DNA of 64,000 bases from an uncultured Alphaproteobacteria bacterium (GTDB taxonomy: Bacteria; Pseudomonadota; Alphaproteobacteria; Caulobacterales; Caulobacteraceae), in contig CAIVVM010000049.1 in the NCBI GenBank assembly GCA_903909375.1, positions 16,568 through 80,567 on the forward strand, written 5' to 3'. A model generated the notes under the pieces. The model made no database searches, was not told where the DNA came from, and saw nothing but the letters and a program-made list of their open reading frames with translations. The translations under genes were made by a program, and so were the position numbers. Every line of letters begins with the position of its first letter. Position 1 is the stretch's first letter. Positions 6,347 to 22,526 of this stretch are shown piece by piece.

Positions 6347-7435
6347 ATGGCCGACCTCTTCGATCCCATGACCTTCCCGCATGGCCCGGCCATGAAGAAC
6401 CGGTTCATGCTGGCGCCGCTGACCAACTGGCAGAGCCATCCCGATGGACGGCTGTCCGACGATGAGTTCAAGTGGTTGACCATGCGCGCCGAAGGCGGCT
6501 TCGGCCTGACCATGACCTGCGCGGCGCACGTGCAGGCCGTTGGTCAGGGCTTCCCCGGCCAACTGGGCGTGTTCGGTGATCAGCATCTGGAGGGCCTGGG
6601 CCGCCTCGCCGCCGCCATCAAGGCTAAGGGCAGCGTCTCGTCGCTGCAGATGCATCATGCGGGAAATCGATCGCCCAGGGAGCTCGTCGGCCAGCCGGTC
6701 TGCCCGTCGGACGATCCCGAAACCGGCGCGCGCGGCCTGTCGCTGGGTGAGGTCGAGCAACTGATCGAGGACTTTGTCGCTGCCGCTGTCCGTTCGGAAC
6801 AGGCTGGCTTCGAGGGCGTGGAGATCCACGGCGCCCATGGCTACATCATCGCCCAGTTCCTGTCGGCCGAACTCAACCACCGCACCGACCGCTACGGCGG
6901 ATCGGTCGAGAACCGCGCCCGCATCATCCACGAGATCATCGACGGTGTCCGCAGCCGCTGCGGACCCGACTTCCAGCTGGGCCTGCGCCTGTCGCCGGAA
7001 CGCTTCGGCCTGAAGCTGGCCGAGATCCTTCAGATCACCCAGACCATCCTCACCGATGGCCGCATCGATTATCTGGACATGTCGCTCTGGGACGTCGCCA
7101 AGGAGCCCATGGAAGAGGAATTCCAGGGTAGGTCGCTGATGTCGTACTTCACGGCGCTGGATCGTGGACAGGTGCGGCTGGGCGTCGCCGGCAAGGTGAC
7201 CAGCCCGGCGGTGGCGCGCGATATGCTGGCGGGGGGCGCTGATTTCGTCCTGATCGGCCGCGCGGCCATCCTGCACCACGACTTCCCGAAGCTCTCCCAC
7301 GATCCCGCCTTCGAGCCGATCGCCCTGCCGGTCACCCGCGAACACCTGGTCAAGGAAGGCCTCGGCCCGGCGTTTGTGGACTACATGTCCACCTGGAAGG
7401 GGTTTGTGCAGGAGCCGGTAGCGGCCGAGGCTTAA
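6347..7435 (+). CDS. NADH:flavin oxidoreductase (old yellow enzyme family)
   Basis: KNRFMLAPLT, GFEGVEIHGAHGY and NHRTDRYGGSVENR. Confidence 0.9.
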   Translation: MADLFDPMTFPHGPAMKNRFMLAPLTNWQSHPDGRLSDDEFKWLTMRAEGGFGLTMTCAAHVQAVGQGFPGQLGVFGDQHLEGLGRLAAAIKAKGSVSSLQMHHAGNRSPRELVGQPVCPSDDPETGARGLSLGEVEQLIEDFVAAAVRSEQAGFEGVEIHGAHGYIIAQFLSAELNHRTDRYGGSVENRARIIHEIIDGVRSRCGPDFQLGLRLSPERFGLKLAEILQITQTILTDGRIDYLDMSLWDVAKEPMEEEFQGRSLMSYFTALDRGQVRLGVAGKVTSPAVARDMLAGGADFVLIGRAAILHHDFPKLSHDPAFEPIALPVTREHLVKEGLGPAFVDYMSTWKGFVQEPVAAEA

Positions 7436-8694
7436 AGGCCGAGACGTGCCGGCTTAGGCCCACCGGTCGCCCAGTCCAGGAGCTCCACGGGGTGGACCAC
7501 TGGCGCATCCAGCACTGGCGCAAGCTGCGCGATACAGCCGATGTTGCCGGCGGCCACAACGACGGCGCCCGTGCGGTTGATGTTGGCGGCCTTGCGGTCG
7601 CGGAGTTGGGTGGCGAGGTCGGGCTGCAGGATGTTGTAGACGCCGGCTGATCCGCAGCAGAGGTGGCCTTCCGCGACCATCCGCACCTCGAACCCGGCCG
7701 CTCCCAGCAGCGCCGGAGGGCCGGTCTTGATCTGCTGGCCATGTTGAAGCGAGCAGGCGGCATGATAGGCCACGATGAGCCCGGAACTCGCCGTGACCGG
7801 CGGCAACCCCACCTCGCCGATGAACTCCAGGATGTCTTTGGCCGGTACAGCCTCGCCGACCAGCTGCTGGTAGGACTTCAGCATTGTCCCGCAGCCGGCC
7901 GCCGTGGTGATGATGGCGTCGATCGTCCCGGCGCGCGCCCAGGCGGCGAGATTGGCGTTCGCCATCAACTTCGCTTCGGCCGCGCGGCCAAGGTGTTCGG
8001 AGAGCGCGCCGCAGCAGCCTTCACCCTTGGCCAGCACGACGTCAAAACCTGCCCGGTTGAGCAATCGGATCGCCGCTTCGCGGATCTCCGGCGCCATCAC
8101 CGGTTCGACGCAGCCCTGCAACAGGATCACGCGACCTTTCACCGGCTGGGCCGCTCCTGTCGGCGCGGCGCCGTGCCCTGGCGCAGTGACGCCGGCCCGT
8201 GATTTCGGGACCAAACCGAGCATGGCTGCCAAGGGTTTCAGTCCCAGACGCCTCAAGAGGGGCTCAAGCGGCCGAGCGATCCGCCCAAGGCCAAGCGCAA
8301 TCCGCAACCTTCCAGGCCGCGTCATCACGCCCGCCAGGACGGCGCGCAGTATCCGGTCGGGCAAGGGCCGTACATGGTGGGTTTCGATGTGAATCCGGGC
8401 GTGGTCGATCAGTTGCGCATAATCGACGCCGGAGGGGCAGGTGGTCGTGCAGGCCAGACACGACAGGCAGCGGTCCACGTGGGTGACGGTGCTGGCCGGC
8501 GGCGGCCCGCCATCCTCCAGCATCGCCTTGATCAGTTCGATCCGCCCGCGCGGACTGTCGCGCTCATCGCCCAGCAGCACATAGGTGGGGCAGGTCGCTG
8601 TGCAAAACCCGCAGTGGACGCACTTGCGGATCGCCGCCGCCGAGGCTGCCGTTTCGGGATCGGCCAGCTGTTCCGGTGTGAACGAGGTTCTCAT
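7432..8694 (-). CDS. glcF: Glycolate oxidase iron-sulfur subunit GlcF
   Basis: CVHCGFCTATCPT, CLSCLACTTTCPSGV and two CCG motifs. Confidence 0.93.
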   Translation of the reverse strand: MRTSFTPEQLADPETAASAAAIRKCVHCGFCTATCPTYVLLGDERDSPRGRIELIKAMLEDGGPPPASTVTHVDRCLSCLACTTTCPSGVDYAQLIDHARIHIETHHVRPLPDRILRAVLAGVMTRPGRLRIALGLGRIARPLEPLLRRLGLKPLAAMLGLVPKSRAGVTAPGHGAAPTGAAQPVKGRVILLQGCVEPVMAPEIREAAIRLLNRAGFDVVLAKGEGCCGALSEHLGRAAEAKLMANANLAAWARAGTIDAIITTAAGCGTMLKSYQQLVGEAVPAKDILEFIGEVGLPPVTASSGLIVAYHAACSLQHGQQIKTGPPALLGAAGFEVRMVAEGHLCCGSAGVYNILQPDLATQLRDRKAANINRTGAVVVAAGNIGCIAQLAPVLDAPVVHPVELLDWATGGPKPARLGL

Positions 8695-9857
8695 CCGCGC
8701 CCCTCCATGCGGCCGGGGTTGAGTACGCCCAGGGGATCAAAGGCGGCTTTGACCCGTGCCTGTAGCGCCCCCAGCGCCCCACTTCTCGCCGTGAACGCCT
8801 CGCCGCCCTGCAGGCAAAGGGCATGGCCGCCCAGGTTCGCGACAACGGCGCGGATGCGGTCAGGCAGCGCCTCAGTCCGTAGCCAGACCTGTCCGCCGGC
8901 CCAGTCATAGAGCGCATCGCCCGCAAGCTGCTCTGGCCCGCGCCATCCCGACGCCGGGGGCAGGGACAGTCGCCAGAGCGGCCGTGGATCGTCTGCCAGA
9001 GCTTCCACCTCGCGCACCTGCTTCCAGAACGGGCGACTGTGGCCGGCGTCCAGTGTCTCGATCCGACCGAAGGGCCTGAGCGCCGCCGCAAGCGCCTCGG
9101 CCCGCGCCGTGACCGACGCCTCGAAGCCCTCAAGCCGCACCGCTGTCACCGCCATCTCGGCCTTCATGGGGCTGGCCTTGGCCGCGAAGGGCGGAAGATG
9201 GGCCGCGCCGGACACTTCAAAGGGGCCGTTCATCGCCACGCCCATGGCTTCCAGGGCCCTGGTGTCGTTCAGGCCAAACAGCATCAGGGTGGTTTCGGCG
9301 CGTGGCGCGGGGAGCACCTTGATGGTGACTTCGGTCAACACCGCCAGCGTGCCCCAGGACCCGGCCATCAGCTTCATCAGGTCATAGCCGGTGACATTCT
9401 TCACGACCTTGCCGCCGGCCTTGAACATCTCTCCCCGACCGGAGACGGCTTCGAACCCCAGGAAGTGATCCCGCGCGGCGCCCGCGCGGACCCGCCGGGG
9501 TCCCGAGACGTTGGCCGCGAGGACCCCACCGAGGGTCGGTTGCCCCGTTGCGCCCAGCAGCCGGGTCCAGTGCGGCGGCTCAAAAGCCAGCATCTGACCC
9601 TGTTCGGCCACCCGCGCCTCCAGATCCGCCAGCCGCACGCCGGGCTGCGCGGTCAGCACCAACTCGTCCGGGGCATAGTCTATGATGCGGTCAAGACGCG
9701 CCGCCGACAGGACCAGATCCGTCCGTTCCACGCTGCCGACGCTCCGCTTCGTGCCGCCGCCGACGATCTCGATGCGACGTCCCTTCGCGCCGGCCTCTGC
9801 GACGGCGTCGAGCACCTCTTCGGGCGTCGCGGGTTCCAGGGTGGGGGCGTTGGACAT
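8691..9857 (-). CDS. glcE: Glycolate oxidase FAD subunit GlcE
   Basis: GGGTKR, GKVVKNVTGYDLMKL and FDPLGVLNPGR; lies between glcD and glcF. Confidence 0.93.
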   Translation of the reverse strand: MSNAPTLEPATPEEVLDAVAEAGAKGRRIEIVGGGTKRSVGSVERTDLVLSAARLDRIIDYAPDELVLTAQPGVRLADLEARVAEQGQMLAFEPPHWTRLLGATGQPTLGGVLAANVSGPRRVRAGAARDHFLGFEAVSGRGEMFKAGGKVVKNVTGYDLMKLMAGSWGTLAVLTEVTIKVLPAPRAETTLMLFGLNDTRALEAMGVAMNGPFEVSGAAHLPPFAAKASPMKAEMAVTAVRLEGFEASVTARAEALAAALRPFGRIETLDAGHSRPFWKQVREVEALADDPRPLWRLSLPPASGWRGPEQLAGDALYDWAGGQVWLRTEALPDRIRAVVANLGGHALCLQGGEAFTARSGALGALQARVKAAFDPLGVLNPGRMEGRG

Positions 9858-11344
9858 CAGAACCGCGGCAGATCCGGGAACGCCAGCTTCCCGCGGTGAA
9901 CATGGACGCGTCCCAGTTCGGCGCAGCGATGCAGCACCGGAAACACCTTGCCGGGATTGAGCAGGAGGCCAGGATCAAAGGCGCACTTGACCCGTTGCTG
10001 GCATGCCAGATCGGTCTCGTCGAACATCTCGCTCATCAGGTCGCGCTTCTCCACGCCGACGCCGTGTTCGCCAGTCAGGACGCCGCCCACCGACACGCAG
10101 AGCTTCAGGATGTCGGCGCCGAACGCCTCGGCTTTTTCCAGATCACCCGGGATGTCGACATCGTAGAGGATCAGCGGATGCAGGTTGCCGTCGCCGGCAT
10201 GGAAGACATTGGCCACGCCCAGCCCGTAATGGCCGCTCAGCTCGGTGATCCTGGCCAGCACCTGGGGAAGCTTGCCCCTGGGGATCGTGCCGTCCATGCA
10301 GAAATAGTCCGGCGCGATCCGCCCCACCGCCGGGAAGGCGGCCTTGCGGCCCGCCCAGAAGGCCTGACGCTCGGCTTCGGACTTTGACACGCGCTCGAAA
10401 GTGACATTCCGCACCGCCGCCAGAGCCCGGATGTGGCCGGTCAGTTCATCGCACTCGGCCTGCGGCCCATCCAGTTCCACGATCAGCAGGGCCGCGCAGT
10501 CCACCGGATAGCCGACGCCCACGAAGGCCTCCGCCGCCCGGATCGCCGGGTTGTCCATCATCTCCAGGCCCGCCGGAATGACGCCCGCGGCGATGATGTC
10601 GCCCACCAGCCCGCCCGCATCTTCCACCGAGGCGAACCCAAGCAACATGGCCTTGGCAGTCTCGGGCTTCGGCAGGATCCGCACCGTCACCTCGGTGACG
10701 ATCCCCAGAAGACCCTCTGATCCGGTCACCAGTCCCAGCAGATCATAGCCGTCCGCGTCCATCGCCTTGCCGCCCAGGCGCACGATCTCGCCGCTCATCA
10801 ACACAAGTTCGCAGCCCAGCAGGTTATTGGTGGTCAGGCCGTACTTCAGGCAGTGCACGCCGCCCGAGTTCTCGGCCACGTTGCCGCCGATGGTGCAGGC
10901 GATCTGACTGGAGGGATCGGGGGCATAGTAGAACCCCTCGGCCTCCACGGCCCCGGTGATCGCCAGATTGGTCACGCCCGGCTGCACCACAGCGCAGCGA
11001 TTGGGATAGTCCACCTCCAGCACCCGGTTGAATTTTGACAGGCCCACGACGACGCCGTCGGCCAGCGGCAGGGCGCCGCCGGACAGTGAGGTCCCGGCCC
11101 CGCGCGGCACGACCTTGACGCCATTGGCCTGACACCAGCGCAGCACCTCGGCGACCTGCGCTGTGGTTTCGGGGAGGACCACGGCGATCGGCGCCTGCCG
11201 ATAGGCCGACAGTCCGTCGCTTTCGAAGGGGACAAGTTCGCTAGCGGCGCTGACCACGTGCTCGCCGGGCACGATCTGCTGCAAGGCGCGCACGATCTCG
11301 GCCTTTCGGGCGATCAGGGCGGCATCCGGCACGGGCATCTTCAT
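9857..11344 (-). CDS. glcD: Glycolate oxidase subunit GlcD (FAD-linked oxidase)
   Basis: PRGAGTSLSGGA, APDPSSQIACTIGGN, HAGDGNLHP and GEHGVGVEK. Confidence 0.95.
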   Translation of the reverse strand: MKMPVPDAALIARKAEIVRALQQIVPGEHVVSAASELVPFESDGLSAYRQAPIAVVLPETTAQVAEVLRWCQANGVKVVPRGAGTSLSGGALPLADGVVVGLSKFNRVLEVDYPNRCAVVQPGVTNLAITGAVEAEGFYYAPDPSSQIACTIGGNVAENSGGVHCLKYGLTTNNLLGCELVLMSGEIVRLGGKAMDADGYDLLGLVTGSEGLLGIVTEVTVRILPKPETAKAMLLGFASVEDAGGLVGDIIAAGVIPAGLEMMDNPAIRAAEAFVGVGYPVDCAALLIVELDGPQAECDELTGHIRALAAVRNVTFERVSKSEAERQAFWAGRKAAFPAVGRIAPDYFCMDGTIPRGKLPQVLARITELSGHYGLGVANVFHAGDGNLHPLILYDVDIPGDLEKAEAFGADILKLCVSVGGVLTGEHGVGVEKRDLMSEMFDETDLACQQRVKCAFDPGLLLNPGKVFPVLHRCAELGRVHVHRGKLAFPDLPRF

Positions 11345-11405: not shown

Positions 11406-12251
11406 TCACCCGTCGTAGAACAGCGCCGGGTGCAGGCCGATTACCTTACGCTCGCGGGACGTGGCCGCGCGCGTGATGGCTTCTGGAGAGAGCTGATTCG
11501 CCTCATCTGTCGGGACCAGTCGCTGGGCGATATCGCGACGGCCATAGTGGACCTGCAGGAAGAACCGCCCCTGGTCGCCGTCCCGGGTTGGCATCCGGCG
11601 GTGCCAGACGTCGGACACAAACAGGCCCGCATCTCCGGCCCGGGTCAGCAAGGGAACCACGCGCTGGCCCTCATAGTCGAGGTCATCATCCATGTTGCGC
11701 GCATGAGGCGGCGCCCGGCCTGAGAGATGGCTGCCCGGCAGCACGCCGGTCGGGCCGTCTTCCAGCGCGCAGTCCTGCAGATAGAGATGCACCCCGATGG
11801 CGAACACAGGATGCGGAATCTCGGCTGGCCACCTCACGCCATCGGGCAACGGCACATGGGGACCCGCGTCGATATGCCAGCTTTGCCCGCCGTGCGAACC
11901 GGGATGGCCGGCTGGGTTGCGCCAGGCGGTGTTGGCGATCACATGGCAGTCCTCGCCCAGCAGCGGCTCGATCACTGACAGCAGGCGCGGATTCGCGCAC
12001 ACGCGCTGGGCGGCGGCGCTTCGGTTCAGCATCGCGTAACGGAACATAGCCGCATCTTCCGGCGGTCGGTCACCGCGCCGGTCGGACGGATCGCGGTCAT
12101 AGATCTCGCTGATCTCGGTCCGCAGCTCTGCAATCTCCGCCGGTGAGAGCAGGCCACGGATGATGGCGTAACCGTCCCGCTCCAGCTGGACGGACTCTTC
12201 CGGCGCCGGCTCGGTGCGGACTTCAAGATAAGGGCGGCCGCGTCGGATCAT
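11406..12251 (-). CDS. Fe(II)/2-oxoglutarate dioxygenase, phytanoyl-CoA dioxygenase (PhyH) family
   Basis: LERDGYAII, the WHID (HxD) motif, GPTGVLPGSH and the distal WHR. Confidence 0.85.
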   Translation of the reverse strand: MIRRGRPYLEVRTEPAPEESVQLERDGYAIIRGLLSPAEIAELRTEISEIYDRDPSDRRGDRPPEDAAMFRYAMLNRSAAAQRVCANPRLLSVIEPLLGEDCHVIANTAWRNPAGHPGSHGGQSWHIDAGPHVPLPDGVRWPAEIPHPVFAIGVHLYLQDCALEDGPTGVLPGSHLSGRAPPHARNMDDDLDYEGQRVVPLLTRAGDAGLFVSDVWHRRMPTRDGDQGRFFLQVHYGRRDIAQRLVPTDEANQLSPEAITRAATSRERKVIGLHPALFYDG

Positions 12252-12315: not shown

Positions 12316-13098
12316 CTAAGCGCCCTTGAACGCCGGTGTCCGCTTTTCGTTGAAACTGGCCACGCCTTCGCGGCGGTCGGCGGTGGTAAAGAGGTGGTTG
12401 TAGAGGCTTAGCTCCAGGTCCATCGCCGTCTTCAGGTCCAGGTCCTGACCGCCATGGACCACCCGCTTCAGCGCCCGCACGGAAAGGGGCGCCCGGCTGG
12501 CGATCTGGGCGGCGACGGCCAACACGGTGTCGAGCAGGGCGTCGACCGGAACCACGCCGTTGACGATGCCGTAGTCCAGCGCCTTGTCAGCCGGGATCGG
12601 GGCGGCGGTTGTCATGATCTCGACGGCCCGGCGGGGTCCCACGGCGCGGGTCAGGAGCTGGGTGCCGCCCAGGCCCGGCATGATGCCGAGCCCGGCTTCC
12701 GGCAAACCGAACCGCGCGCCCTCGGCGGCATAGGCGAAGTCGCAGGCGAGCGTCATCTCGCAGCCGCCGCCCATGGCCGCACCCTGCACGGCCGCAATCA
12801 CGGGGACAGGCACGGCCAGCTGCGCGCGGGCCATGTCCTCGAAGATCTTGTGCTGGGCCGCCCAGGCCTCATCGGTCATGCCGTTACGTTCCTTGAGGTC
12901 CGCGCCGGCCTGGAAGTTCTTGCCCTCGCCGCGCAGGATCACGCAGCGCAGATCGACGCGCGCACCCAGTGTGGTCCAGGCGTCCAGCAGTTCGCGGCCC
13001 ATGGTCGACGACAGGGCGTTGGCCACCTCCGGCCGGTTGAACACCACAGCCACGATGCCGGGGCCCAGGTCTTCCAGTTTGATCGTCTCGTAGGCCAT
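12316..13098 (-). CDS. Enoyl-CoA hydratase/isomerase family protein
   Basis: NRPEVANAL, FQAGADLKE, GGGCE and PEAGLGIMPG. The real start is MAYETIKL at 13098, coupled to the upstream stop (TGATG). Confidence 0.9.
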   Translation of the reverse strand: MAYETIKLEDLGPGIVAVVFNRPEVANALSSTMGRELLDAWTTLGARVDLRCVILRGEGKNFQAGADLKERNGMTDEAWAAQHKIFEDMARAQLAVPVPVIAAVQGAAMGGGCEMTLACDFAYAAEGARFGLPEAGLGIMPGLGGTQLLTRAVGPRRAVEIMTTAAPIPADKALDYGIVNGVVPVDALLDTVLAVAAQIASRAPLSVRALKRVVHGGQDLDLKTAMDLELSLYNHLFTTADRREGVASFNEKRTPAFKGA

Positions 13099-14246
13099 CA
13101 AAAGCTCTTCGGCTGGCCCAGCACGTGGGTGGCCACGTGGCTGAGGATGAGGTTCGTGGAGATGGGAGCCACCTGGTAGAGGCGGGTCTCCCGGAACTTG
13201 CGCTCGATGTCGTATTCCTCGGCGAAGCCGAAGCCGCCGTGGGTCTGGATCGCCATGTCGGCGGCAAACCAGCTGGCCTCCGAGGCGACCAGTTTGGCCA
13301 TGTTGGCCTCGGTGCCGCAGGGCTGACCGGCCTCGAACAGTTCCGCCGCCTTCTCCACCATCAGATTGGCCGAGGTCATCTGCACGTAGGCGCGCGCGAG
13401 AGGGAACTGGACGCCCTGATTCTCGCCGATGGGCCGACCGAACACGACCCGGTCTTTCGCGTACTGGCTGGCGCGGTCGATGAAGAACTTCGCATCGCCG
13501 ATACACTCCGCCGCGATCAGGATCCGCTCGGCGTTCATGCCGTCGAGGATGTACTTGAAGCCCTTGCCCTCCTCGCCGATCAGGTTCTCGGCGGGAACCT
13601 CCAGGTCCTCGAAGAGCAGCTCGGTCGTGGCGTGGTTCAGCATGGTGCGGACCGGCGTGATGGTCAGGCCGTTCCCCACCGCCGTGCGCATGTCGACCAG
13701 CAGCACGCTCATCCCGGCCGAGGTCTTCGCCTCGTCGCGCGGCGACGTGCGGCAGAGCAGCACCATCAGATCAGAGTGCTCGGCCCGGCTGATCCACAGC
13801 TTGCGGCCGTTCAAGACGTACTTGTCGCCGACCTTCCTCGCAAAGGTGGTGATGCGGGTGGTGTCGGTGCCGGCGTCCGGCTCGGTCACCCCGAAGGCCT
13901 GCAGGCGCAGTTCGCCGCTGGCGATCCTCGGCAGATAGGCCTCTTTCTGGGCTGACGTGCCGTGCCGGAGCAGCGTGCCCATGGTGTACATCTGGGCGTG
14001 ACAGGCGCCGCCGTTGCAGCCCGACCGGTGGATTTCCTCCAGCACCGCCGACCCCGCCGCCAGACCCAGGCCCGAGCCGCCATACTCTTCCGGAATCAGC
14101 ACCGACAGGAAGCCGGCCTCGGTCAGGGCCTGGACGAAGGCCGTCGGATAGGCGCGATCGCGGTCAAGCGCCCGCCAGTACGCGCCGGGGAAGCGGGCGC
14201 ACAGCTTGCGCACCGCCTCGCGAATTTCAGGGAAGGTTTCGGTCAT
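13098..14246 (-). CDS. Acyl-CoA dehydrogenase (not the isovaleryl-CoA dehydrogenase type)
   Basis: [36 protein letters not shown] and [20 protein letters not shown]. Start chosen at MTETF (alternative 14267). Confidence 0.9.
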
Positions 14247-14332
14247 CGTGGTGTCTCTGTCATGCACGGCACTGGAGATCGACTGCCAAAAGTGATCATC
14301 TCCAGAAAACAGGAAACGCCGGGGAACCCAAG

Positions 14333-15988
14333 GTGAGTCAACTCAGCTATGTGCATGGCGCGAGTTCGCAGCCGCTGATCGGAAAGACCATCGGCGTGGT
14401 GTTCGACGAGACGTGCGCCGCCCATCCCGATCAGCTTGCGGTGATCTCCCGCCATCAGAAGATCCGCTGGACCTATGCTGAACTGCAGCGCCGCGTCGAC
14501 GCCTTCGCCGGCGGCCTGATTGCGCTGGGCCTGGAACCGGGTGACCGGATCGGAATCTGGGCGCCGAACTGCGCCGAATGGGTCGTCACCCAGTTCGCCA
14601 CCGCCAAGGCGGGCCTGATCCTCGTGAACATCAACCCGGCCTATCGTCTGTCAGAGGCCGAGTACGCCTTGAACAAGGTCGGCTGCAAAGCCCTGGTCAT
14701 CGCCGTTCGCCACAAGACCAGCGAGTATCTGTCGATGGTGCGAGAGCTGCGCGAGGCGGGCCGCCTGCCGCATCTCGAAGTCGTCATCACAATCGGCGAC
14801 GATCCGCACCGCGGCTGCCAGAGCTTTCCGCACGTGTCGAACACCGCCCGCCTGGCTGACCGGTCGCGGCTGACCGAGATCGGCGCGACCCTGCAGTTCG
14901 ACGACCCCATCAATATCCAGTTCACCAGTGGCACCACCGGCTTTCCCAAGGGCGCGACGCTCAGCCACCACAACATCCTGAACAACGGCTTCTTCGTCGG
15001 CGAGGCGCTACGCCTGAAGGCCGGATCCCGACTCTGCATTCCGGTGCCGCTCTATCACTGCTTCGGCATGGTGATGGGCAATCTGGGCTGCATCACCCGC
15101 GGCGCCACCATGGTGCTTCCTTCGGAAGGATTCGAACCCCTCGCTGTGCTGGAGGCTGTGTCAGAGGAACGCTGCGAGGCCCTTTACGGGGTGCCCACCA
15201 TGTTCATCGCCGTGCTGGCGCATCCGGCCTTCGACAGTTTCGACCTGACCTGTCTGCGCACCGGGATCATGGCCGGCTCACCCTGTCCGGTGGAGGTGAT
15301 GCGTCAGGTGATCGACCGGATGCACATGCCGGAAGTGACCATCGCCTATGGCATGACCGAGACCAGCCCGATCAGCTTCCAGTCCAGCTGCGACGATAGC
15401 CTGGAAGCCCGGGTCTCCACCGTCGGTCGAATCCAGCCCCACGTCGAGGTCAAGATCGTCGACGAGACCGGACGGATCGTCCCCCGCGGCGCGCCCGGCG
15501 AACTCTGCACCCGGGGCTACTCCGTGATGCTGGGCTACTGGGATGATGCCGAGCGGACGGACGAGGCCCTGGACCGGTCCGGCTGGATGCATACCGGCGA
15601 CCTCGCCACCCTCGATGCCGACGGCTACTGCAACATCGTCGGCCGCATCAAGGACATGGTCATTCGCGGCGGCGAGAACGTCTATCCGCGCGAGATCGAG
15701 GAGTATCTCTATGGCCATCCTGCGGTGCAGGACGTGCAGGTGATCGGCGTACCCGATCTCAGGTTCGGCGAGGAGCTCTGCGCCTGGATCGTGCTGAAGC
15801 CCGGCGAAGCGGTCACCGACGAGGATGTCCGCGACTTCTGCCGCGGCCAGATCGCGCACTACAAGATCCCCCGCTACATCCGCTTCGTGGAAGGTTTCCC
15901 CACGACCGTCACCGGCAAGGTGCGCAAGGTCGAGATGCGCGAGACCATGATCGCCGAGCTTGACCTGAAACTGGAAAAGACGGCCTAG
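14333..15988 (+). CDS. Acyl-CoA synthetase (AMP-binding enzyme)
   Basis: [27 protein letters not shown] and [13 protein letters not shown]. Confidence 0.92.
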
Positions 15989-17591: not shown

Positions 17592-18329
17592 ATGGATAAC
17601 GCAGCGCGCTGGATTTCAATTGGCTCAATATCTCTCGTTACACTTTCGTTGTTGTATGTTGCTGGATATTTTCAGCCGATTGGAAGTATTTGGCTTCAGC
17701 AACTTTCAATTCAAGATGTTTTCTCACTATCCTGGACTATATTGCCGAGTTTGTATTTGACGATTTTATTGTGTATTCTTGCCAATTTCTTAATCCAAAA
17801 AACAACAAACAGGGCTTATTCGAAAGATTTAAGGCTAGTCGGATATTTTGCAATACTGATTGTTTCCGCATCAATTGTAACATATATATACTGCATAATT
17901 AGACAAACCGAAGACGAAACCAATTTATCAAAAGTTTATGCATTTGTAGGATCTTCCATAGTCGTATCTTCCGTACTATATTATGGATCAATATACAGAA
18001 TCAAAAAAGACCTGATGTTTTCGTGCATTGTATTGACTGTGGGTTTTTCATTTTCTGCGATACCAATCGGTGCATCGCAGTCTTCTAAGTTGATTGAAGG
18101 AAAATTGGGCGATCTAATCTACCATCGAGACGGTAGAAAGATTTGTACACATGTTGTCTACAGTGGAAGCAAGGGCATTCTCGCGGTGGATGGACCGAAT
18201 AGGCCTCGCGTGTGGATTCGCGACTCGGAGTATCGCTCCATAGCTCGACGCTTCCCCTGCAGGCAGGTGCCGGGAGAAGCAGCAAGTCGGAAGACATCGG
18301 TGCCAAACTCAACCTCGGTCACCAAATGA
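17592..18329 (+). CDS. Orphan AT-rich multi-pass membrane protein (about 4 predicted TM segments)
   Basis: 245-codon open frame filling the mccB-mccA gap exactly; hydrophobic segments; GC 18/60 at 17761-17820 versus 41/60 at 17401-17460. Confidence 0.75.
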   Translation: MDNAARWISIGSISLVTLSLLYVAGYFQPIGSIWLQQLSIQDVFSLSWTILPSLYLTILLCILANFLIQKTTNRAYSKDLRLVGYFAILIVSASIVTYIYCIIRQTEDETNLSKVYAFVGSSIVVSSVLYYGSIYRIKKDLMFSCIVLTVGFSFSAIPIGASQSSKLIEGKLGDLIYHRDGRKICTHVVYSGSKGILAVDGPNRPRVWIRDSEYRSIARRFPCRQVPGEAASRKTSVPNSTSVTK

Positions 18330-20211: not shown

Positions 20212-21429
20212 TCAGCTGGCCCCTGCCACCACGCCCGCGTCGTGCAGCTTGCCGATCTCGCCGCTGCTCATGCCCAGCACCTCGGCCAGCACCTCGTCGG
20301 TGTGTTGACCCAGTTTCGGCGCCGGTAGCACCGGTCCACGTTCGTCCTGCGGGATCGTGCCCATGGCGCCGGGGGCGGGGTAGGTGAGGCCGCTGGGGTG
20401 TTTCACGGCCTCGAACACCGGGTTGTTCTTATAGAGGCGGGTGTCCTCCAGCGCCGCCTCCAGCGTCTGGTAGCTGCCCCACGTGACCCCGCCAGCGTCG
20501 AAGGCCGGTGTCAGGGCGGCGGCGTCCTTCGCGGCGAAGGCCCGCTCGAACAGCGGATAGAGCCGCGCGCGGTGGGTGAAGCGCAGGCCTTCGTCGGTGG
20601 CGAAGGAGACGCCCAGCGCCCCTTCCACGGCAGAGACCTCGGCGCCGATACCCAGCGCTTCCAGGGCCTTGCTCCACTGCTTGGGCGTGATCGCCAGCAG
20701 CATCAGCTTCTGCCCGTCGCGGGTGGTGAAGTCGCGGCCGAAGGCGCCGAACACGTCATTGCCCATACGGGGGCGCTGGTGGCCGGTCAGCATCGCCTCG
20801 GCGGTGAAGCCCATGTTGGCCATGGACGCTGCGCCGATGTCCGACAAGGGGGCCCGGATCTCGCGACCGCCCGCGCCGCGATGGCGCGCCAGAAGCGCAG
20901 ATACCAGACCAAAGGCGCAATAGGCGCCGGTGAGCAGGTCCCATGCCGCCAACACGTGGTTGACCGGCCGGTCGTCGTCGGCCGGTCCCGTCATCAAAGG
21001 CAGACCCAGCGCCGAATTGATCGTGTAGTCCATGCCCTGCGAGCCGTCGGCCCAGCCCATGACCCGCACGCAGATCAGATCAGTGCGAAGGGCGCTGAGC
21101 TTCTCGTAAGACAGGAACCCGTCGACCGGGAAGTTGGTCACAAACAGGCCCGCGTCGTCGCCCGGCGAGGCCGCCAGCCGCTGGGCGATCTCCCGCCCGG
21201 CAGGGCCCGAGAGGTCCAGGGCCACCGACTTCTTGCCCTTGTTCAGGCCCTCCCAGTAGAGGCTGGCGCCATTGTCAGCCAACGGCCAGCGCCGGTAATC
21301 CGGACCGCCGCCGATGTTGTCGAACCGGATCACCTCGGCGCCCATCTGGGCCAGGTAGAGACCGCAGGTGGGCGCGGCGACAAAGGCCGATCCCTCAACG
21401 ACGCGCAGGCCTTTCAGAAGATCGTACAT
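20212..21429 (-). CDS. mct: Class III CoA transferase, 2-methylfumaryl-CoA isomerase (mesaconyl-CoA C1-C4 transferase)-like
   Basis: LRVVEGSAFVAAP, IRFDNIGGGPDYRRWP, LYWEGLNKGKKS, GLFVTNFP and AWDLLTG match the Mct subfamily as I recall it. Confidence 0.75.
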   Translation of the reverse strand: MYDLLKGLRVVEGSAFVAAPTCGLYLAQMGAEVIRFDNIGGGPDYRRWPLADNGASLYWEGLNKGKKSVALDLSGPAGREIAQRLAASPGDDAGLFVTNFPVDGFLSYEKLSALRTDLICVRVMGWADGSQGMDYTINSALGLPLMTGPADDDRPVNHVLAAWDLLTGAYCAFGLVSALLARHRGAGGREIRAPLSDIGAASMANMGFTAEAMLTGHQRPRMGNDVFGAFGRDFTTRDGQKLMLLAITPKQWSKALEALGIGAEVSAVEGALGVSFATDEGLRFTHRARLYPLFERAFAAKDAAALTPAFDAGGVTWGSYQTLEAALEDTRLYKNNPVFEAVKHPSGLTYPAPGAMGTIPQDERGPVLPAPKLGQHTDEVLAEVLGMSSGEIGKLHDAGVVAGAS

Positions 21430-21431
21430 GG

Positions 21432-22361
21432 TCAGGCCACCAGCTTTCCGACCTCGGCCACCTCATCGGGCGTGAGCCGCCACTCCGCGGTGGCGGCGTT
21501 GGTGCGGACCTGCTCCGGCGACGTGGCGCCGGCGATCACCGAGGACACCGCCTCGTGACCCAGTAGCCAGGCGAAAGCCAGTTCCAGAATGGTGTGGCCG
21601 CGCTCGCCCGCCCACGCCTCGAGCGCCTCGATCCGGTCGAAGTTGCGGTCGCTCATCGCCTGGGCGCCGCGCGCGCCCCAGGCGGCCAGCCGTGTGCCTT
21701 CCGGCGGCGCCTCGCCGCGCTTGTACTTGCCCGACAGCAGGCCCGATGCGAGGGGGAAGAACGGCAGGAAGCCCAGGCCGAAGTGCTCGCAGGCCGGCAG
21801 CACCTCGCGCTCAACGTCGCGCTCCAGCAGGGAGTAGAGGTTCTGTGCTGACACAAACCGCGTCTGGCCGGCGGCGCTCCAGTCGGCGTCGGCGATCTGC
21901 CAGCCGTTATAGTTGGAGTTGCCGAGGTAGCGGACCTTGCCCTGGGTGACGAGGTCGTCCAGCGCGCGCAGCGTCTCGTCCACCGGCGTGTCGCCGTCGG
22001 GCTGATGGTGCTGATAGAGGTCGATGTAGTCGGTGCCGAGGCGGCGAAGGCTATCCTCGACCGCCGTCATGATCCAGCGGCGAGATCCCCCGCGCTTCCT
22101 GGGGTCCTGGCCGATCTGCATGCCGAACTTGGTGGCCAGCACGATCTCGTGGCGTCGCTTGCCCAGCGCCTTGCCCAGAAACACCTCAGACTGCGTTCCG
22201 CCATAGATATCGGCCGTATCGAACAGGGTGATGCCCGCGTCGATGGCGGCGTCCACGACGGCCTGGGTCTGGGCCTGGTCGATCCGCATGCCGAAATTGT
22301 TGCAGCCCAGGCCCACTACACTGACCTTCAGCCCCGAGTTACCCAGCCGGCGCACCTTCAT
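21432..22361 (-). CDS. Aldo/keto reductase
   Basis: GLGCNNFG, FDTADIYG, SLRRLGTDYIDLY and PFFPLASGLLSGKY. Confidence 0.92.
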   Translation of the reverse strand: MKVRRLGNSGLKVSVVGLGCNNFGMRIDQAQTQAVVDAAIDAGITLFDTADIYGGTQSEVFLGKALGKRRHEIVLATKFGMQIGQDPRKRGGSRRWIMTAVEDSLRRLGTDYIDLYQHHQPDGDTPVDETLRALDDLVTQGKVRYLGNSNYNGWQIADADWSAAGQTRFVSAQNLYSLLERDVEREVLPACEHFGLGFLPFFPLASGLLSGKYKRGEAPPEGTRLAAWGARGAQAMSDRNFDRIEALEAWAGERGHTILELAFAWLLGHEAVSSVIAGATSPEQVRTNAATAEWRLTPDEVAEVGKLVA

Positions 22362-22433
22362 CCGTCATCTCCCGTATCTGTTGTCGGGCCGGTTCTAGCT
22401 GTCCCGGCGAGGGAAGCGCCAGCGGGATCATGC

Positions 22434-22449
22434 TTAAGCCGACGTTCAC
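22434..22449 (+). promoter_or_regulatory. Putative CtrA binding site upstream of cpaB
   Basis: TTAA-GCCGACG-TTCAC matches TTAA-N7-TTAAC with one mismatch; a TTAAC half-site follows at 22484-22488. Confidence 0.55.
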
Positions 22450-22526
22450 TTTGCTTGTTGGCGATGTCGCAAGTGGGTCGTCGTTAACGTGTTCACATCA
22501 AACAGAAACTCGCGGCGGATCAGTAG

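Follow-up and report, generated by a model that had tools for sequence, protein, structure and literature searches.

Mesaconyl-CoA C1-C4 transferase (Mct) is an intramolecular CoA-transferase known from the 3-hydroxypropionate bi-cycle, and partial sets of the genes of this bi-cycle were reportedly recognized in non-autotrophs by Zarzycki and Fuchs in 2011. Such partial sets in heterotrophs have already been discussed, for example in Candidatus Kentron (PMC6593406), and our literature search found Mct only in the bi-cycle and in the partial sets of a few non-autotrophs. Here we describe an Mct-like gene at positions 20212-21429, on the minus strand, of a 64,000-nucleotide stretch of DNA (hereafter the window; contig CAIVVM010000049.1, positions 16,568 to 80,567) from an uncultured alphaproteobacterium of the family Caulobacteraceae. 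Its product of 405 residues (ATG at 21429, stop at 20212-20214) is a family III CoA-transferase of the Mct-like branch, placed in a clade that we call Q. As far as its sequence tells, its most likely function, to which we give about an even chance, is an Mct-type intramolecular shift of CoA between C1 and C4 of mesaconyl-CoA, or of a close C5 analogue, working in the catabolic direction. The same search found no paper describing clade Q; as to the heterotrophic route that the initial annotation had called undescribed, partial bi-cycle sets of heterotrophs had been published before (PMC6593406).

The structural basis of the intramolecular reaction was described by Pfister et al. (PMC9813914) and Min et al. 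(PMC9196870). The catalytic residue of Mct is Asp165, while Arg47 and Tyr136 hold the distal carboxylate. The so-called cork consists of Leu43, Arg75, Phe101 and Arg104 (plus Arg314' in the Roseiflexus enzyme), and the adenosine of CoA seals the site, its 3'-phosphate being clamped by Arg75, Phe101 and Arg104 (PMC9813914, PMC9196870). Leucine or isoleucine at position 43, which narrows the entrance, is stated for all known intramolecular transferases, and Arg47 occupies the space that belongs to a mobile glycine-rich loop in intermolecular enzymes (PMC9813914).

The transferase matches Pfam PF02515 (CoA_transf_3) over positions 1-366 of the 366 in the profile (199.6 bits), and the best NCBIfam model is TIGR04253 (Mct), with 410.3 bits over model positions 2-402 of 403. 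The runner-up, succinate-glutarate CoA-transferase, reaches 109 bits, and the score of the Mct model is four times that of any other family III CoA-transferase model. The closest solved structures are likewise those of Mct (7xkg, 398 bits, and 8apq, 389 bits, both at full length), and the next family follows at 99 bits. The alignment with Chloroflexus Mct (47% identity) is collinear, interrupted only by three single-residue gaps and free of gaps over residues 60-273. An AlphaFold2 model of the monomer (pLDDT 88) retrieves family III enzymes among the Foldseek hits listed, and its top matches are Mct structures (E 1e-44), with SUGCT trailing by twenty orders of magnitude; the TM-score of 0.54 against all family members is low and uninformative, since the dimer of this family is interlocked and a model of one chain cannot show it. 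The gene is intact and conserved across more than 100 close homologues. ThnP was also considered as a relative and discarded, given that it is a family I enzyme.

A library-wide search gave 277 representatives at E ≤1e-30, and genuine Chloroflexus Mct sequences were recovered by means of a degenerate DNA motif. In a tree of 93 rows, in which the family III paralogues of the same genome served as the outgroup, the Mct-like superclade is separated from these paralogues with a Shimodaira-Hasegawa-like approximate likelihood-ratio (SH-aLRT) support of 100; the grouping with ordinary CaiB/BaiF enzymes that the initial annotation had named as evidence against an Mct-like identity was thus looked for and did not appear. 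These data support the view that the transferase truly belongs to the Mct-like branch of family III, outside the ordinary CaiB/BaiF groups. Within the superclade it falls in an 11-row clade, Q (SH-aLRT 100), which contains the genus of the query, three other Caulobacterales genomes, one Porticoccaceae protein and two further alphaproteobacteria. The comparison with Chloroflexus Mct proposed in the initial annotation did not bring the two together: the Chloroflexus enzyme groups elsewhere, among actinobacterial, myxococcal and Binataceae-type proteins of the same signature. The transferase is not an Mct equivalog, nor an orthologue of Mct in the strict sense. The ten proteins tested among the 277 representatives also score below the curated cut-off of TIGR04253 (725 bits), with 335-584 bits.

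With regard to the distribution of the gene, at E 1e-80 a match occurs in 35 of 301 genomes of the class sample and in 21 of 151 genomes of the order sample, and at E 1e-100 in 19 of 401 genomes of the phylum sample. Each of the three further genomes of the genus, which NCBI names place with Phenylobacterium, has an orthologue (70-87% identity), and none of the 27 other genomes of the family in the order sample does.

The residues on which Mct depends for chemistry and for binding the carboxylate are kept. In Mct numbering, Asp165, Arg47, Tyr136, Asn100, Asp135 and Phe101 are found in the transferase and across the whole Mct-like superclade. The Mct motifs noticed in the initial annotation, with their WD segment, were correctly recognized: Asp164, within AAWDLLTG (residues 161-168), aligns with the catalytic Asp165 and is invariant in alignment A1. 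Arg47 corresponds to Arg47 and Tyr135 to Tyr136, and both are conserved in 119 of 119 close homologues. As in Mct, there is no tetra-glycine (GGGG) loop.

The cork has diverged, with three of its four residues replaced (Leu43 by Pro43, Arg75 by Ser74 and Arg104 by Asp103) and Phe101 retained; further differences from Mct are Phe in place of Trp106, Gln/Gly in place of Ser132/Glu133 and Gly in place of Arg314'. We compared 119 close homologues (≥85% identity) with 120 members of a second large clade of heterotrophs (Solirubrobacterales, Binataceae and others), in which the Chloroflexus Mct signature is present. Position 43 is invariant in both sets, as Pro in 119 of 119 close homologues and as Leu in 120 of 120 proteins from the second clade; position 104 is always acidic in the former (100 Asp, 19 Glu) and Arg in 118 of 120 of the latter; and position 75 drifts among the close homologues (46 Ser, 26 Thr, 26 Gly, 19 Ala), while it is Arg in 91 of the 120. 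Positions 106, 132 and 133 are Phe, Gln and Gly in the 119 close homologues and Trp, Ser and Glu in the 120 others. When the broad clade-Q set is compared with the Chloroflexus-type clade, only nine positions are conserved but different, mostly in a conservative manner, and the cork positions are variable inside clade Q and fixed in the Chloroflexus-type clade.

A hot-dog hydratase of about 285 residues recurs beside Mct-like genes in many clades, and counts as Meh-like because it shares 46-47% identity with a gene of the Chloroflexus mct loci. The most complete clade-Q module seen is a tight operon of seven genes in one genome (G418, contig C26; L049:5182-12738), which encodes an HMGCS-like/DUF35 fusion (c7), an SCP2-type thiolase, an acyl-CoA dehydrogenase (ACAD) of the type ACAD389, an Mct-like protein with Pro43, an Mcd-like dehydrogenase of 553 residues (ACAD553), a Meh-like hydratase and a protein of 269 residues, an arrangement whose logic resembles that of bbs operons for a substituted succinate. 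In two other genomes (G761 and G734) an Mcd-like ACAD is adjacent to or near the Mct-like gene, in another (G309) the Mct-like gene is followed by the Meh-like one, and in five genomes of one family (f147) ACAD389 is followed directly by the Mct-like gene, and three of them (G773, G726 and G570) have a Meh-like gene at a distance of one or two genes. In G361, which belongs to the genus of the query, the gene is divergent from one for a RipC/Ccl-like (CitE-type) lyase, followed by a hydratase of the MaoC/MC_hydratase type. Several of the clade-Q relatives in Mcd-like/Meh-like contexts carry Pro43 and lack Arg104, that is, they sit where a C1/C4 isomerase would be needed, and therefore the loss of cork residues is compatible with an isomerase context. 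Since clade-Q relatives share their operons with genes for Mcd-like ACADs and Meh-like hydratases, a heterotrophic route through mesaconyl- and citramalyl-CoA is plausible for the clade.

Of the eleven family III paralogues in the genome of the query, which is 99.97% complete, one is Mct-like. The genome also encodes an orthologue of (2S)-methylsuccinyl-CoA dehydrogenase (Mcd; G000:C36:87375-89012, L111:7373-9013, minus strand), which matches 6es9 over its full length with 659 bits and is flanked by two TetR regulators and a glutathione S-transferase gene. Ccr was not found in this genome, so the ethylmalonyl-CoA pathway is ruled out as a source of mesaconyl-CoA; isocitrate lyase is present. 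Mcd occurs in all four genomes of the genus and in 76 of the 151 genomes of the order, and its wide distribution suggests that it has a common role outside the ethylmalonyl-CoA pathway. Because the Mcd of the genome is of the C1 type, an isomerase would be useful. The proposed enzyme, a predicted homodimer of the Mct lineage, would form acyl-aspartyl anhydride and aspartyl-CoA intermediates at Asp164, with Arg47 and Tyr135 binding a small branched dicarboxylyl-CoA by its free carboxylate. The Mcd orthologue would supply mesaconyl-C1-CoA without the ethylmalonyl-CoA pathway, the transferase would shift the CoA to C4, and the C4 product might be hydrated and then cleaved by lyases of the CitE/Ccl type to acetyl-CoA and pyruvate, so that the Mcd product would gain an exit toward the cleavage of citramalyl-CoA. 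In this genus the gene may be a stand-alone remnant or an offshoot of the larger clade-Q operon (ACADs, Mct-like, Meh-like and a thiolase pair).

The genome has candidates for the later steps of this route, which count in its favour. The absence of bi-cycle genes from the window, which the initial annotation had reported, is confirmed, and a tblastn search of the genome with Chloroflexus and other mcl/mch/meh probes matches only contigs C28 and C38. The wider search that it had proposed, for meh, mch, ccl and mcl, yielded no Meh-like gene, only distant CitE/MaoC paralogues on these two contigs; orthologues of Chloroflexus-type Mcl, Mch and Meh were not found in the genome, where the probes gave either no match or at best 31-38% identity to those paralogues. 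Contig C28 carries a cluster of five genes (G000:C28:16792-20870, L110:4793-8886), which may form an itaconate/mesaconate module. Its products are a pair of MaoC half-proteins (Ich/Mch-like), a family III CoA-transferase of the succinyl-CoA:mesaconate type (437 bits against a cut-off of 700) and a pair of CitE/RipC-Ccl-like lyases; genes for an aldehyde dehydrogenase and an ACAD lie near it, and a further CitE-like lyase is encoded on C38. The cluster has no counterpart in the three other genomes of the genus, so that it was probably acquired, and for that reason it is rejected as a general conserved partner of the transferase. As for the rest of the clade-Q module, the HMGCS-like/DUF35 fusion gave no match in the genome, the thiolase matches at just 30% and ACAD389 has a relative at no more than 47%. 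In sister genera of the same family, genomes that have Mcd and lack the Mct-like gene carry a full-length gene of the MC_hydratase family, and G336 and G441, two relatives in the genus of the query, show the reverse; none of our claims draws on the unpublished genome G341. This complementary pattern between the Mct-like gene and MC_hydratase among the carriers of Mcd is suggestive, although the genomes are few and related.

Several observations weigh against a C1/C4 shift within this route. The score of the transferase lies under the Mct equivalog cut-off (410.3 vs 725 bits), and to force its subclade together with Chloroflexus Mct costs 189.6 log-likelihood units (lnL), with a p-AU of 0.0002, for a group defined only once the tree was known. 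In the cork, Pro takes the place of the Leu43 of Mct, and the CoA-phosphate clamps Arg75 and Arg104 have become Ser and a conserved Asp/Glu. With regard to partners, searches of the four genomes that represent the genus gave no Meh-like hydratase, an MC_hydratase-family gene was not found in G336 or G441, both of which have Mcd and the Mct-like gene, and the hydratase/lyase cluster of C28 is unique to the genome of the query. Moreover, Mcd is far commoner than the transferase (76 vs 21 of the 151 order genomes), and the conserved neighbour of the gene, an aldo-keto reductase (AKR) of 309 residues encoded directly upstream (21432-22361, minus strand) and its likely operon partner, has no place in the route. 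Of the heterotrophic mesaconyl-/citramalyl-CoA route suggested in the initial annotation, what stands is the part that draws on clade-Q operons; the argument from the position of the gene finds no support, the transferase is no Mct equivalog, the Meh-like hydratase is missing and three cork residues are replaced.

Some of these observations suit a different enzyme. The genus-level subclade may have an opened entrance and act as an intermolecular dicarboxylate CoA-transferase, dependent for instance on succinyl-CoA; the acid that it activates would be dicarboxylic or hydroxy-dicarboxylic and might come from the AKR. The replacement of three of the four cork residues, with position 75 drifting, position 104 conserved as acidic and Ser132/Glu133 turned into Gln/Gly, would fit an open site, as would the variation of the cork positions over clade Q as opposed to their fixation in the Chloroflexus-type clade. 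It would also agree with the junction between the two genes, in which the TGA of the AKR gene is followed by 2 nucleotides and then by the ATG of the transferase, with the conservation of the pair in G336 and G441 (at gaps of about 60 nucleotides), and with a genus that has no Meh-like hydratase; Mct itself shows trace intermolecular activity with succinate (PMC9813914). However, Arg47 is retained and the mobile glycine loop is absent, relatives with Pro43 belong to Mct-like/Mcd-like/Meh-like operons in which the logic of the pathway needs an isomerase, the conserved-but-different positions relative to the Chloroflexus-type clade are just nine and mostly conservative, and the AKR is by its matches a generic family member with no known link to dicarboxylates. 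We regard an intermolecular enzyme as the main alternative to the C1/C4 shift, but as a less likely one. A broader form of the same idea, which we regard as unlikely, is that the Mct scaffold was re-purposed in the genus without the corking by CoA, either as an open intermolecular dicarboxylate CoA-transferase or for a thioester whose nucleotide end is other than 3'-phospho-ADP; it is suggested because Pro43, the acidic residue at 104 and Gln132/Gly133 are fixed and the gene is coupled to the AKR in genomes without Meh or Mch. Such an enzyme would be a natural counter-example to the cork-up model.

The C1/C4 shift on mesaconyl-CoA, which we favour, draws no support from the local setting of the gene. 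The AKR and the transferase would be co-transcribed, and the only space for a promoter of the pair would be the intergenic region at 22362-22526, divergent from cpaB, where a scan for promoters and terminators found no sigma-70 consensus and nothing above the shuffled expectation. On its other side the gene is convergent on mccA, as the initial annotation had stated, with 2 nucleotides between the stop codons of the transferase and of the alpha subunit of 3-methylcrotonyl-CoA carboxylase (MCC). Judged by its beta subunit, which reaches 823 bits against that of P. aeruginosa MCC (3u9r) and 472 bits against geranyl-CoA carboxylase (GCC), this carboxylase is an ordinary MCC, and a geranyl-CoA carboxylase of the Atu type is ruled out.

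The convergent arrangement, kept in G336 and G441, invites the idea that the transferase serves the MCC/leucine cluster by shifting CoA between the carboxyls of 3-methylglutaconyl-CoA or 3-hydroxy-3-methylglutaryl-CoA. The products of MCC are indeed branched dicarboxylyl-CoA esters, and the next-best solved homologue of the transferase is a succinate-hydroxymethylglutarate CoA-transferase. The synteny, however, is confined to genomes that are 86-87% identical and share the whole block (glcD, an enoyl-CoA hydratase gene, an ACAD gene, mccB, mccA, transferase, AKR, cpaB/C); G361, with a 70% orthologue, has none of these neighbours and no MCC genes within 9 kb, MCC genes appear in 0 of 25 more distant contexts of Mct-like genes, and the transferase and mccA lie on opposite strands, with no co-transcription. 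We therefore regard a role in leucine degradation as improbable. Since the orthologue in G361 lacks all of these neighbours, the argument from position made in the initial annotation (mccA, an ACAD and a hydratase nearby) fails, the adjacency being confined to the two syntenic genomes; on the same grounds the MCC cluster was rejected as a functional partner, and the position of the transferase beside a carboxylase of leucine catabolism looks coincidental. The junction between the transferase and mccA is an insertion hot spot, since different genes are wedged in there, namely a GlcD-like FAD oxidase in G441 (L046:10244-11512) and a DUF2804 protein in G336 (L045:7909-8931).

The MCC cluster has some peculiarities of its own. 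Its ACAD (13098-14267, minus strand), which the initial annotation had taken for a C5-dicarboxylate type, cannot be assigned to that type, since it has its best PDB and NCBIfam matches among generic short-chain ACADs; it is no canonical isovaleryl-CoA dehydrogenase either, with 161-184 bits to the solved members of that family vs 230 to generic bacterial ACADs. Inside or beside the cluster there are a PhyH-family dioxygenase (11406-12251, minus strand) and a PRK12583-type acyl-CoA ligase (14333-15988, plus strand; 838 bits, above the cut-off). The ligase looks like a strain-specific insertion, because no counterpart was found in the syntenic blocks of G336 and G441. An open reading frame of 245 residues (17592-18329, plus strand), which has no Pfam or NCBIfam match, lies between mccB and mccA. 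A local source of glyoxylate is encoded immediately upstream of this acyl-CoA cluster, namely a glcDEF-like glycolate oxidase operon (7432-11344, minus strand; FAD_binding_4/FAD-oxidase_C, FAD_binding_4 and CCG/Fer4 domains).

The question of autotrophy deserves separate mention. Pipelines label Mct-like proteins of this kind as 2-methylfumaryl-CoA isomerase (K14470), K14470 and K09709 serve as markers of the bi-cycle in metagenomics, and a study of the Malaspina deep-ocean data called the presence of the marker genes 'surprising' (PMC8139981). What speaks for a bi-cycle role of the transferase is this label, which comes from annotation of the JGI/KEGG style and serves as a marker (PMC8139981), but there is no Chloroflexus-type orthologue of Mcl, Mch or Meh in the genome, the gene falls outside the Chloroflexus clade and the lineage is that of a Phenylobacterium-like heterotroph, so that a role in an autotrophic or complete bi-cycle can be dismissed for practical purposes. 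Given that more than 7,800 homologues of the Mct-like proteins exist in heterotrophs, hits to K14470 say nothing about autotrophy, and this is a practical problem of annotation.

The locus itself is a weak example of its clade, since the gene stands alone in an uninformative setting. The value of clade Q lies elsewhere: it includes natural variants with Pro43 and without Arg75 and Arg104 that nevertheless occur in Mcd/Meh-type operons, and these allow a direct test of the notion that Leu/Ile43 and the arginine clamps make Mct intramolecular.

When compared with the known systems, the transferase shares with the Mct of Chloroflexus and Roseiflexus the fold, 47% identity, the catalytic and carboxylate-binding residues and the lack of a glycine-rich gating loop; it differs in that it lacks mcl, mch and meh as neighbours, belongs to a heterotroph and has an AKR as its likely operon partner. 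With the intermolecular dicarboxylate transferases of family III (SUGCT, 9br6; succinyl-CoA:mesaconate CoA-transferase, NF041294; IaaL) it has in common the fold and, as predicted for it, the aspartyl-anhydride chemistry and dicarboxylate substrates, but only about 24% identity and 56-109 bits, and the genome has a separate paralogue of the succinyl-CoA:mesaconate type on C28. The partial bi-cycle sets of non-autotrophs (Candidatus Kentron, PMC6593406) likewise employ an Mct-type enzyme outside autotrophy, in the assimilation of organic acids; they include mcl, mch, meh and a cork-bearing Mct, in contrast to the transferase, which has none of these genes nearby and no intact cork. The clade-Q operons that combine an ACAD, the Mct-like gene, the Meh-like gene and a thiolase, in some cases with an Mcd-like gene (G418, G761, G309 and f147), encode members of the same protein clade, with Phe106 and other signature residues in common with the transferase, which is found alone with the AKR, the partner genes being absent from the window. 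Finally, the itaconate-methylsuccinate pathway of Pseudomonas and Cupriavidus, formed by Ict, (RS)-methylsuccinyl-C4-CoA dehydrogenase, Ich and Ccl (PMC12290011), is also heterotrophic and converts a branched C5 dicarboxylate via mesaconyl-C4-CoA and (S)-citramalyl-CoA to acetyl-CoA and pyruvate. This pathway uses C4 esters throughout and needs no Mct, and methylsuccinyl-C1-CoA was called a dead end by its authors (PMC12290011). Where an Mct-like gene accompanies a C1-type Mcd and Ccr is lacking, as here, the genes point instead to a possible catabolic exit for methyl-branched dicarboxylates that would be distinct from the C4-ester route of Pseudomonas and Cupriavidus.

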